58,017 bases of DNA from an uncultured Legionellales bacterium (GCA_964352915.1 CAYGTQ010000003.1:1-58017), one strand, 5' to 3'; shown: positions 9,160 through 12,002, counted from the first letter of the stretch. The notes: generated by a model from the letters alone, not told the origin. Program-made: numbers and translations.

Positions 9160-9505
9160 TATGGCCTCCCCAAAGTGCTCTGTCTCAATATATAGTGCCC
9201 TTGCTACTCATTTCAAGTCATGAACCAAATTTTTTCTTCTACCTGGCGAGCTCTTATGAGGTATGACCTAAATGTTGCTTGCTTGTACGATCTTCTCAGT
9301 TCAAAAAATTTGATAAATTAAAGAGCCTTAATAAAGACCTAATTATACTATATAAGAACTTAACGGCTTGATTTTAAGTATTTTTTTATTACATTATAAT
9401 TTATAATAAAACTATGTATACATTTATTGTTCTTAATGTGTATAATATGTATTAAATGCATGCTAAATATCGCATGTGGCTTTATTAATTTCTTCGAGGT
9501 TTTAT

Positions 9506-10345
9506 ATGGTTCAATATTACCGATGTATTGGCTGGAGCATACTTTGCACGCTGTTGATGCTGCCTACAGATGCGTTGTTCGCTGACTCACCTGTCAAAAA
9601 AACAAGCGCTGCTGCATCCAGCCAGGATCCCTACACAACACCACCACGACGAAACCCAGATCGCGCTAACCGTAAGCTATTTTATACGCCTGAAACACGC
9701 AGCCTTACGCCTTCTCCAGCTCGCTCTGACTATGCTGACGATCTACCCATGTTCGGACTTACTTTTGCGGAGTTTCTAAGCAGCCAAAATGATCAAACCT
9801 ATCAAAGATATAAGCAAAACAACAACTCCAAAAAAGCTAAAGCCTGGCGCAGGCAGCAACGTGAAGATTACATCATCGAAAGGCTGTACGAACTTGAACA
9901 TTATCCTAACCTCCACCAGGTGTGCCAAAGCTTCAAACGCAACGCTGATGTGGAAGCTCTAGCAACCGATTTGCATATCAGGGCAAGCCACGCCTATCCA
10001 CAAGAAGATTTCCCCAACACACCTTTTTCAACCATTGGTACCCATCGGCACTATTTTTGTGAACGCTATATGAAAGCCATCAAGGCTTATTGCGTTAAAT
10101 TTTTGCAAGATAGCGTCAAGAAGACTTTATGGCCTGCCCTGCGCATTGAAGTGGCTTACCTCAATGGCGAAGAAGTGCCTGTTGGCACCCAAGGCTCGGT
10201 GCAACCAGACATTTTTGTTACAAGTGGAAGAGCTTTTGATCATAAATTTGGTGGAGCTCACATAGCAAGAAAAGACAAGAAGCTCTGGCGGCAGCACGTG
10301 CCCGGATACACATCATCCGTTGCTATTCATGATGAAGGGTATTAA
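9506..10345 (+). CDS. Exported hypothetical protein, paralog A, with a PD-(D/E)xK-like C-terminal motif
   Basis: ATG at 9506 with GAGG 7 nt upstream. Signal peptide MVQYYRCIGWSILCTLLMLPTDALFA, then a Pro/Ser-rich linker. The conserved C-terminal domain is shared with ORF 11104-11946 (FPNTP.S..GTHRH.FCE.YMKAIK; GSVQPD-x10-FDHK at 10193-10246). Confidence 0.75.
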   Translation: MVQYYRCIGWSILCTLLMLPTDALFADSPVKKTSAAASSQDPYTTPPRRNPDRANRKLFYTPETRSLTPSPARSDYADDLPMFGLTFAEFLSSQNDQTYQRYKQNNNSKKAKAWRRQQREDYIIERLYELEHYPNLHQVCQSFKRNADVEALATDLHIRASHAYPQEDFPNTPFSTIGTHRHYFCERYMKAIKAYCVKFLQDSVKKTLWPALRIEVAYLNGEEVPVGTQGSVQPDIFVTSGRAFDHKFGGAHIARKDKKLWRQHVPGYTSSVAIHDEGY

Positions 10346-10381
10346 AGTAGCCCGCATACATGAGAACTTTAAGGGCATGAT

Positions 10382-10894
10382 GTGCGCTTTTTTTTATCAA
10401 AACTATTTGCTTTGCTCGCCATAGCTTGCAGCACCTTGACCGCTTACAGCCAAACCAGCATGCTTGATAAGATCGAACAAATACCAACGCTCAAAGAACG
10501 GGTGGCGCTACTGCAAGTTCATCTGGCCGATAAAAAAGAGCGCAAAATTCTTTTTCAAACTTTCGAACAACTTGATATACCATCAGCACAATCTGATGAT
10601 TTTGAAAAAAAAATAAGCTTATTAACCTATTATGCTTCTGCCAGCAAATACCTTTTATTCCACACAAAAAACAAAGACCAGCAAAAACACTTAGCCGAGT
10701 TAAGCGCATTGTGCTATACCAAAGTTGCGCGAGCAGAGCCTGATGGCTATCTGGCTGTCAGTTTACCCAAAGCCATCACAAAAGACATTCTGAGCGATGA
10801 TGGTACGCTTCAGCAACAAGGCCATAAAGCACTGATCGGTTTTCTGTTAGCTGAAAACAAAAAAACCTACCTGAGCGCCCGTGATCATGGGTAG
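10382..10894 (+). CDS. Small exported hypothetical protein (170 aa)
   Basis: GTG start. Hydrophobic N-terminal signal sequence (MRFFLSKLFALLAIACSTLTAYSQ), then a charged sequence that looks predominantly helical. It sits between the two paralogs on the same strand. Confidence 0.6.
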   Translation: MRFFLSKLFALLAIACSTLTAYSQTSMLDKIEQIPTLKERVALLQVHLADKKERKILFQTFEQLDIPSAQSDDFEKKISLLTYYASASKYLLFHTKNKDQQKHLAELSALCYTKVARAEPDGYLAVSLPKAITKDILSDDGTLQQQGHKALIGFLLAENKKTYLSARDHG

Positions 10895-11103
10895 CACTGA
10901 GCCATTTAGCCTTGTCATAAAAAAATAGATCGCGATCGTTCTGCTCTTTAAAAAATCCTTACCCAGCCGCTCCACAGATACTTATTTTACCTATAAGATT
11001 ATTTTTTGATTTAAAAAGCTTTTTTATTCCTTTTTGTGTTTAAAAAGTATATCATGATTTTAATGTATCTATATAAATCTTTTTAAACACATTTTGGTGA
11101 ATA

Positions 11104-11946
11104 ATGAGTCATTCATGCTCAAAGTACAAAGCCTGCTTCCTACCAATCCTACTTGCCATCACCCTGCTGCACTTGTCACCATCGATAGCTGGAAAACGTA
11201 AGGCTCTGGCCACTCTGGAATCTGCTGTTAACAGTGCACCACCTTGGACGCCAAGACTGCGCAAAGAGCGCAAACACCACTTCACTCCAGAGTCAGCCCA
11301 AAGCGCTGCGTCTAATGTCTCAGAATATGTCGATGATGCAGCTTTAGCCGGTCCATCTTTCCCAGATTTTTTAAAAAAACAGGATATAAAAACACATCAA
11401 CGTTACACCCGTCACAAAAATAGCCAACCGGAATCTAAGTGGCGAAAAGCATTACGACAGCAATACATGGAGGAGCGGTTAGAGGAGTGGAAGCAAGATG
11501 TACCGCACTTATCCCGTGTATGCTTAAGTTTAAAGCGGCCAGCTAATGTTGAAGCTCTGGCACTTGATCTGAATATTAAAGCAGCTCAAGCTTTTCCTGA
11601 AGAAGCCTTCCCCAACACACCGTTATCCAATCTTGGCACACATCGCCATCTATTTTGTGAGCAGTATATGAAAGCTATTAAGGAGCACTGCCAAAACATA
11701 ATTGAAAATTTGCCTTGTAAGCGTAACTTATGGGCTGGTATGGAAATTGAGCCGGCTTATCTGGATGGGCACCCTGTGCCAATAGGCACCAAAGGCTCTG
11801 TTCAACCTGATTTGTATCTGCCAAAGCAAGGGTGGGTATTCGATCATAAAAACTTCGACGCTGGCATTAAGCCTGAAGATCTGGAAAACTGGCGGAGAAA
11901 TTTGCCTCATTTTAAGCACGCTGTTGAAATCAAAGCTGATAGCTGA
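11104..11946 (+). CDS. Exported hypothetical protein, paralog B, with a PD-(D/E)xK-like C-terminal motif
   Basis: Signal peptide (ACFLPILLAITLLHLSPSIAG). In one ungapped 56-aa block aligned by hand (LSLKRPANVEAL...KAIKEHC against QSFKRNADVEAL...KAIKAYC), 37 positions are identical to paralog A. GSVQPD-x10-FDHK lies at 11794-11850. Confidence 0.75.
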   Translation: MSHSCSKYKACFLPILLAITLLHLSPSIAGKRKALATLESAVNSAPPWTPRLRKERKHHFTPESAQSAASNVSEYVDDAALAGPSFPDFLKKQDIKTHQRYTRHKNSQPESKWRKALRQQYMEERLEEWKQDVPHLSRVCLSLKRPANVEALALDLNIKAAQAFPEEAFPNTPLSNLGTHRHLFCEQYMKAIKEHCQNIIENLPCKRNLWAGMEIEPAYLDGHPVPIGTKGSVQPDLYLPKQGWVFDHKNFDAGIKPEDLENWRRNLPHFKHAVEIKADS

Positions 11947-12002
11947 CAATTAAAAAAGACCAACGTTTTGCTAATCATTTAAAGAGACGTTAAACTGTAC
12001 AC

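Follow-up and report, generated by a model that had tools for sequence, protein, structure and literature searches.

Restriction-endonuclease-fold toxin domains are carried on the tips of Rhs proteins and also behind plain signal peptides in the Tox-REase families (Zhang et al. 2012, PMC3482391). These families are the closest described kind to the system that we report here, which was found in a 58,017-nucleotide stretch of DNA from an uncultured Legionellales bacterium (CAYGTQ010000003.1), referred to below in its entirety as the window. The system comprises two paralogous open reading frames (ORFs), ORF A and ORF B, and a smaller gene between them, which we call the middle gene. Among the Tox-REase families, Tox-REase-9 (PF15650) has the nearest signature, given as GxxxH, E, D, ELKP and YxxE, and it has been reported in an effector of the amoeba-associated Parachlamydia (PMC3482391). 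Another PD-(D/E)xK toxin domain, PoNe, is used by several secretion systems and also occurs in forms with nothing but a Sec signal peptide attached (PMC6688995). On balance, we favour the reading that ORFs A and B encode Sec-exported nuclease toxins that require metal ions and are accompanied by an inhibitor that is exported as well. The features that bear on this are the following, with lengths in amino acids (aa).

9506-10345, plus strand: ORF A, 279 aa, ATG start, with an alternative GTG at 9476
Within ORF A: signal-peptide-like segment at aa 1-26, then a disordered Pro/Ser-rich linker and a helical extension
~9953-10342, plus strand: toxin domain of ORF A, aa ~150-279; predicted catalytic residues H182, E215, D235, D245 and K247, transferred from ORF B by alignment
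10382-10894, plus strand: middle gene, 170 aa, GTG start, 36 bp downstream of ORF A
11104-11946, plus strand: ORF B, 280 aa, ending 56 bp before the start of rpe
Within ORF B: signal-peptide-like segment at aa 1-29, disordered linker to ~aa 84, helical extension at aa 85-173
~11551-11943, plus strand: PD-(D/E)xK-like toxin domain of ORF B, aa ~150-280; key residues H182, E216, D236, D247 and K249

The toxin domain resembles Tox-REase-9 in its motifs, which in ORF B numbering read G178-x3-H182, E216, D236 and D247-x-K249, and some Rhs tips of the family read DLKTG. However, the motif on the third β-strand is DxK[FT]G rather than ELKP, and the conserved YxxE is not seen in our alignment. The partner gene also differs, as it is neither Imm54 nor a member of any Pfam family, and its product is predicted to be exported. 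Neither PF15650 nor any other Pfam model matched at E-values up to 10 when 23 domain sequences and the full-length proteins were searched. The likeness to PoNe and its immunity protein PoNi lies in the immunity gene directly downstream of a PD-(D/E)xK toxin (PMC6688995). PoNi, however, carries DUF1911/DUF1910, whereas the partners described here have no Pfam domain and do have signal peptides (PMC6688995). The PoNe motif itself, Kx3GExnGIDx2YxnYx3ExK, is absent from the family alignment. Tox-REHH was likewise rejected, as both its motif and its immunity protein differ.

Nuclease colicins and pyocins are diffusible toxins that are made with a tightly linked small inhibitor and released as a complex with it. 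The system in the window resembles them in pairing a candidate diffusible nuclease toxin with a linked, putative small inhibitor that we propose exits bound to it. Unlike the partners here, colicin immunity proteins are cytoplasmic, and colicins are released without Sec signal peptides. Their folds are of the HNH or cytotoxic RNase type, not PD-(D/E)xK, and the present family has no recognisable receptor-binding or translocation domains, unlike colicins. The family or variant is new, within a known kind of system, and its unusual feature is that both toxin and partner are exported.

An uncatalogued toxin-domain family with a branch of exported proteins

The toxin domain of ORFs A and B belongs to a family that no catalogue lists. 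Its H-E-D-DxK set is invariant, it is used on Rhs tips, and it has an exported branch with a conserved exported partner. An exhaustive HMMER search with a profile of A and B against 1.84 billion representative proteins returned 31 members of the family at E-values up to 1e-3, and no other family. Sixteen of the 31 resemble A and B. They are mostly 226-283 aa long, with a few shorter fragments, and share a hydrophobic N-terminus, a Ser/Asp-rich linker (often ending SGSN[WYF]SD), a helical region and the conserved C-terminal domain. Another 13 matches cover only the last ~70-130 residues, which form the C-terminal tips of larger toxins. Of these, P0021 combines RHS repeats with a YD shell, and P0025, P0028 and P0029 have the YD/DPxG end of an Rhs core. 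A search with a profile of the domain added 33 further proteins, all annotated as hypothetical and none with a Pfam domain, many of which start with the end of an Rhs core (DPxGL) or with the pre-toxin motif FAYCxNNPxxxxDPxG. The domain is found, then, at the C-terminal tip of delivery scaffolds (Rhs/YD and pre-toxin motifs). A first-pass annotation of this DNA, made from the sequence by itself, had suggested toxin modules among other roles, and this fits, the same domain being the tip of Rhs/YD polymorphic toxins. The window proteins carry only a signal peptide and no Rhs-type scaffold, which corresponds to the 'T2SS/Sec' class of Zhang et al.

Other searches added little. The two ORFs and the middle gene gave nothing meaningful in Pfam, NCBIfam, PADLOC, PHROGs or the sequences of the Protein Data Bank (PDB), and the annotation had recognised no named family for A and B. 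No curated family covers the domain. Profiles of the domain and of the full-length proteins returned only noise from PDB sequences. Word-index protein searches found only the query, or the query and P0012, and tblastn against plasmids gave no relevant match. Pattern scans of genome and metagenome contigs found nothing with patterns from the A/B alignment, and one genome match and one metagenome match (locus L011) with patterns from a narrower alignment. The genome match is the Acanthamoeba symbiont Candidatus Caedibacter acanthamoebae (CP008936, locus L010), the sole named genome with a homolog and one in 185,579 species genomes. Altogether, about 17 exported proteins of this kind come from metagenomes and one from this symbiont. 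In PADLOC, single members matched Shedu SduA (DUF4263; E-value 0.005) and REase_II (E-value 0.037) marginally. The text of a Salmonella STox survey held no REase-type entry that could be linked to this family, though its hidden Markov models may list the domain.

ORFs A and B share 43% identity across 267 residues (BLASTP E-value 4e-70) and are paralogs, as the annotation had stated. Its hand alignment had found 37 identities in an ungapped block of 56 residues; the block exists, and its best placement contains 38. Both strings that it quoted, FPNTP.S..GTHRH.FCE.YMKAIK and GSVQPD...FDHK, occur in A and B alike. The spacing from PD to FDHK, which it gave as 10 residues, is 8 in ORF A and 9 in ORF B. 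The mature parts of both proteins also have the three conserved cysteines that it noted (Cys140, Cys185 and Cys196).

Five putative catalytic residues are conserved across the family

Conservation over 64 family members, in ORF B numbering, singled out H182 (55/56), E216 (61/63), D236 (63/64), D247 (63/64) and K249 (64/64). The same five columns are invariant in the 23-sequence domain alignment. A PD-(D/E)xK signature had been proposed with the glutamate of the helical 'FCE' string as its first acidic residue, and invariance of the motif among homologs was put forward as a check. The aspartates and the lysine of that proposal are borne out, but the glutamate is not, since just 13 of 57 members have E186. 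The conserved residue of the helix is His182 in a G-x3-H motif, one turn before E186, and the conserved glutamate is E216, in the motif E-x-[SA]-Y on the first β-strand. All five are retained in ORFs A and B, which are intact and only 43% identical to each other.

One homolog with a signal peptide, P0018 (locus L013, 3226-3954), has lost the three acidic residues together (E to N, D to H and D to N) and has kept the lysine and the fold motifs. Judging from these substitutions, it is probably an inactive derivative. The contig that carries it ends 71 bp downstream of the gene.

The predicted fold resembles that of PD-(D/E)xK nucleases

An AlphaFold model of ORF B was made with a 31-sequence alignment and had a mean predicted local distance difference test score (pLDDT) of 82, with values above 90 for residues 85-280. 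An input of A and B only gave a pLDDT of 41. Secondary structure assignment with DSSP placed H182 in a helix (174-200) and E216 in strand segments within 214-220, which are followed by a short hairpin. After the hairpin, D236 directly precedes a strand (237-239), and a further strand (244-248) contains D247 and is directly followed by K249. A helix (257-266) and a last strand (272-276) complete the domain. The predicted core of ORF B is α-β-β-β-α-β, the arrangement that the first-pass annotation had proposed looking for, with the acidic residues and the lysine at the canonical PD-(D/E)xK places. Additional helices at residues 85-173 are confined to the exported clade and absent from Rhs tips.

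Structural comparison with Foldseek, using the whole 280-residue model as query, gave mostly PD-(D/E)xK nucleases among the top 50 PDB matches, each weaker than an E-value of 0.1. They include Cas4 SSO0001 as the best match (E-value 0.29), many influenza PA-N structures, RecE, Can2, the L endonucleases of the arenaviruses Lassa and LCMV, and AbaSI. In BFVD, the top match was a phage 'Type VII secretion protein' (E-value 3.4e-4, probability 1.0), which is probably a homologous toxin. The next matches were an exonuclease, a restriction enzyme, DUF559, a Holliday junction resolvase, a Cas4-like protein, TnsA and Endonuclease I. These results are consistent with a PD-(D/E)xK fold and lend it moderate support, short of proof. 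Taken with the conserved residues, the model suggests that the C-terminal ~130 residues of A and B are most likely a PD-(D/E)xK domain that hydrolyses phosphodiester bonds of nucleic acids with Mg2+ or Mn2+.

The cap-snatching endonucleases, PA-N and its counterparts in the L proteins of arenaviruses and bunyaviruses, make up many of the PDB matches, but with E-values of 0.8 or worse. The active site of influenza PA-N consists of H41, E80, D108, E119 and K134, and the present family has the same set of ligands (H182, E216, D236 and D247, against H41, E80, D108 and E119) in the same order at similar spacing. The lysine is on the third β-strand in the present family but on a later helix in PA-N, and the biology is entirely different. 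An hhalign comparison with an approximate PA-N sequence showed no detectable sequence relationship; its probability of 0.4% depended on a chance 'YDYK' string, and the alignment was rejected as evidence.

Predicted export signals in toxin-like proteins and partners

Signal peptides were called by a heuristic scan for n-, h- and c-regions. As the annotation had predicted, ORFs A and B both have signal-peptide features, namely a positively charged n-region, at least 10 residues of hydrophobic core and small amino acids at -3 and -1, with predicted cleavage at LFA|DS in ORF A and SIA|GK in ORF B. The disordered linker that it described is also predicted by AlphaFold, with a pLDDT below 50 for residues 45-72 of ORF B. 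By the same scan, signal-peptide-like N-termini are present in the middle gene, in 15 of 16 toxin-like homologs and in all partners, two of these through alternative upstream starts. Cytoplasmic proteins and toxin tips, scanned as controls, showed no hydrophobic core.

The toxin domain has a mean of 2.3 cysteines in the exported clade versus 0.2 in toxin tips (n=46). An enrichment in the exported clade only is expected if that clade alone folds in an oxidising compartment, and the cysteine counts therefore support its predicted export.

A fast-evolving partner gene follows the toxin-like gene

A partner gene of 115-210 aa lies downstream of the toxin on the same strand in 9 of the 10 exported-clade loci with downstream sequence. 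These nine are the window (ORF A and the middle gene), L001, L003, L004, L005, L006/L007, L010, L011 and L012. The distance between toxin and partner ranges from a 4-bp overlap to a gap of about 100 bp. None of the partners of the exported clade has a Pfam domain, and they diverge far faster than the toxins, which is typical of toxin-immunity pairs.

The partners of L005, L006, L010, L011 and L012 are recognisably related and form a main group. Those of L003, L004 and L001 match the profile of this group, with at most 3 of 1000 shuffled sequences reaching the real score, and an hhalign comparison of one partner group with the other gave an E-value of 8e-5 (probability 61%). The middle gene scores 14.9 bits against a profile of the L003 and L004 partners, which none of 2000 shuffles equalled, and it is the sole match to a profile of the L001, L003 and L004 partners among 572 six-frame ORFs of the window (E-value 0.014). 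With moderate confidence, these sequence comparisons place the middle gene in the partner family, among its divergent members, and we regard it as a putative inhibitor or immunity protein. A lipoprotein assignment suggested by its LLAIAC motif was rejected, as the cysteine is not kept in the other partners.

The homolog loci have a low GC content (0.32-0.40). A gene for a WipA-type phosphatase, a Legionella effector, lies nearby in L003, and toxin-antitoxin (TA) modules and ParAB genes adjoin the pair in L005 and L006. In L010, the pair lies between a gene for a secreted histidine-phosphatase-like protein (4672-5361), with a signal peptide and a Ser-rich tail, and one for a patatin-like protein (7285-8349), both identified by reading the sequences and not by Pfam; the two flanking genes are of typical effector type. 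In L001, 3 kb downstream of the pair that contains P0012, there are three adjacent paralogs (7701-10577; 279, 141 and 477 aa) that have signal peptides and lack Pfam domains, and whose N-terminal ~125 residues are mutually related (E-values 1e-10 to 8e-24).

A same-strand small gene also follows the toxin directly in the Rhs locus L008 and in the Gram-positive locus L015. The latter (6001-8742) encodes a 209-aa toxin in which the domain follows a FAYCxNNP motif and a transmembrane helix, and then a cytoplasmic 230-aa protein. It continues with a second FAYC-type orphan module and a lipoprotein, a typical polymorphic toxin/immunity array.

The cassette and its surroundings

Pfam identifications and ORF predictions confirm that ORF A, the middle gene and ORF B form a same-strand cassette of three genes between the core genes dapB and rpe, the layout given in the annotation. 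All three lie on the plus strand, with the following flanks and spacers.

8207-8902: dapB, core gene on the 5' side of the cassette, identified by Pfam
9160-9505, no strand: AT-rich spacer upstream of ORF A, 346 bp, GC 0.295
10895-11103, no strand: AT-rich spacer between the middle gene and ORF B, 209 bp, GC 0.278
12003-12662: rpe, core gene on the 3' side of the cassette, identified by Pfam

The region had been described as an AT-rich insert. This is true of the spacers but not of the coding parts, in which GC (0.42-0.47) and GC at third codon positions (0.41-0.44) are the same as in the flanking core genes, so that composition gives no sign of a foreign insert. A search for direct repeats indicative of an insertion revealed none flanking the cassette.

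A promoter-like site precedes ORF A (9417-9446, plus strand; score 10/12). Scans of the region for promoters and terminators gave no more sites than shuffled sequence, and the spacer between the middle gene and ORF B yielded no convincing call for either. ORF B probably has its own promoter there. A T-rich stretch of 28 nucleotides is 75% identical upstream of the two ORFs (9368-9395 and 11006-11033), ~110 nucleotides ahead of the start codon of ORF A and ~70 ahead of that of ORF B. This might reflect a regulatory element that was copied with the gene and is common to both, or a chance similarity in AT-rich DNA.

Between dapB and the cassette there is an 86-aa ORF on the minus strand (8899-9159), which converges on dapB with a 4-bp overlap at its stop codon and is transcribed divergently from ORF A. 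It had no match in Pfam, NCBIfam or PADLOC, was a singleton cluster in the protein collection, and had no counterpart beside the homologs elsewhere.

The gene content of the window is of an ordinary gammaproteobacterial chromosome type, including ptsP-rppH, pilMNOPQ-aroK, ponA, hemA-prfA, ast and suf. The window proteins are singleton clusters in the protein collection, so the organism has no close relative there. Between rppH and dapB, two short adjacent ORFs (7652-7974, minus strand) match successive parts of an AAA_14 ATPase domain (E-values 5e-4 and 3e-7) and look like a broken gene. A 183-aa ORF at 31905-32456 (plus strand) carries a DUF4143 domain, and this ORF and the AAA_14 pair may be remnants of ATPase genes of one kind. 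A 372-aa ORF at 49045-50163 (minus strand) had no Pfam match at E-values up to 1e-3.

How the system might work

If ORFs A and B are exported nuclease toxins, they would cross the inner membrane unfolded through Sec, and then fold and form disulfides in the periplasm. The His/Glu/Asp/Asp set may bind two metal ions, by analogy with the His-containing site of PA-N, and Lys249 may position the attacking water. The co-exported partner would bind and silence the enzyme in the periplasm, where it could intercept the toxin of sibling cells too. The toxin, or a complex of toxin and partner, might then be released, for instance by type II secretion, against competing bacteria or a eukaryotic host. ORF B would be a tandem paralog that may rely on the single partner gene or need none.

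A bolder proposal, which we consider rather unlikely, is that this is a distinct toxin system of amoeba-associated bacteria, in which enzyme and inhibitor both pass through Sec, meet only in the periplasm and exit as a complex. In a stronger version of it, the substrate would be a phosphodiester of the envelope instead of nucleic acid. Either version, if true, would be a toxin-immunity organisation that has not been described for restriction-endonuclease-fold toxins.

Several observations weigh against a nuclease toxin with an exported inhibitor. No sequence profile ties the family to any of the Pfam PD-(D/E)xK families, including Tox-REase-2, -3, -5, -7 and -9, a link that the first-pass annotation had proposed looking for. 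The structural search that it also suggested returned no PDB match better than that to Cas4, with low TM-scores. It had further asked about co-occurrence with the middle gene, which is seen at nine of ten loci but not at L014, where the most divergent homolog (P0031) has no partner; ORF B also has no partner gene of its own. The homology between the middle gene and the partners is weak, with no match to the main partner group by itself and p = 0.015 against all other partners together, and it becomes clear only through L003 and L004. The genes after the L008 and L015 toxins encode proteins without signal peptides, which would be cytoplasmic, and they are unrelated to the exported partner. Finally, the periplasm offers a nuclease no obvious substrate, which makes an exported inhibitor unexpected. 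This oddity keeps two alternatives in contention, a host-directed effector accompanied by a chaperone and an envelope-acting enzyme.

Alternative readings

As host-directed effectors, A and B would be nucleases of an intracellular, amoeba-associated bacterium that attack host nucleic acids, and the partner would be a periplasmic chaperone, a secretion adaptor or a co-secreted subunit rather than an immunity protein. The only named genome with a homolog is that of an Acanthamoeba symbiont, where the pair lies between genes for a secreted histidine phosphatase and a patatin-like protein, and the WipA-type phosphatase gene near the L003 pair points the same way. Effectors with the restriction-endonuclease fold have been reported in endosymbionts of amoebae and arthropods, together with signal-peptide toxins that have lineage-specific N-terminal domains (Zhang et al. 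2012, PMC3482391). The helical extension of the exported clade (85-173), absent from Rhs tips, would suit such a role. However, such effectors are usually encoded without a closely linked partner gene that evolves fast (PMC3482391), and 9 of the 10 loci have one here. Two loci have neighbours of TA and plasmid type, as is typical of conflict modules, and the window holds only ordinary gammaproteobacterial housekeeping genes. We consider this reading unlikely.

A second alternative is that the exported clade has switched its target to a phosphodiester of the envelope, for example in lipid-linked intermediates, phospholipid head groups or glycans, and is neutralised where it acts by a periplasmic immunity protein. 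Colicin M and Cmi offer a precedent for a toxin neutralised at its site of action by a periplasmic immunity protein. The signal peptides on toxin and partner in nearly every locus would be explained, as would the extra helical module and the extra cysteines, which have no counterpart in cytoplasm-acting tips. Secreted or membrane immunity proteins are known to accompany cell-surface-acting toxins (Zhang et al., PMC3482391). Yet the Rhs tips have exactly the same catalytic set, and the immunity-like proteins encoded downstream of them are predicted to be cytoplasmic. Moreover, nothing in the data indicates an envelope substrate. To our knowledge, the characterised PD-(D/E)xK enzymes act on nucleic acids. 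An envelope enzyme is in our view improbable.

We give equally little credence to a housekeeping nuclease of the periplasm or cell exterior, serving nucleotide scavenging, turnover of biofilm DNA or control of DNA uptake, with the partner as its regulator. Such a role would agree with the native composition of the genes, their place among core genes and the retention of two paralogs with all catalytic residues intact. The window also encodes the type IV pilus assembly operon pilMNOPQ, and type IV pili often serve DNA uptake. The family is, however, very rare and patchy (31 of 1.84 billion representatives and 1 in 185,579 species genomes), it has no relatives other than toxin tips, and elsewhere it adjoins TA modules and plasmid genes.

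That A and B are not enzymes at all, or are decaying genes in which the motif is a structural relic, is highly improbable: inactive versions do exist, as the joint loss of E, D and D in P0018 indicates, but both window paralogs keep all five invariant residues at 43% identity, in intact ORFs and with a confidently predicted fold.

Implications

With this family, the known toxin domains of Rhs and other polymorphic toxins are joined by one of the restriction-endonuclease fold that had not been catalogued and that has an H-E-D-DxK site. In amoeba-associated bacteria, one of its branches has turned into small proteins with a signal peptide, whose partner is exported as well. The five invariant residues and the two-gene module make this a simple and directly testable system. 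If the partner is an inhibitor, the system would be a nuclease toxin with its immunity outside the cytoplasm, which bears on how a producer may protect itself from its own Sec-exported toxins.

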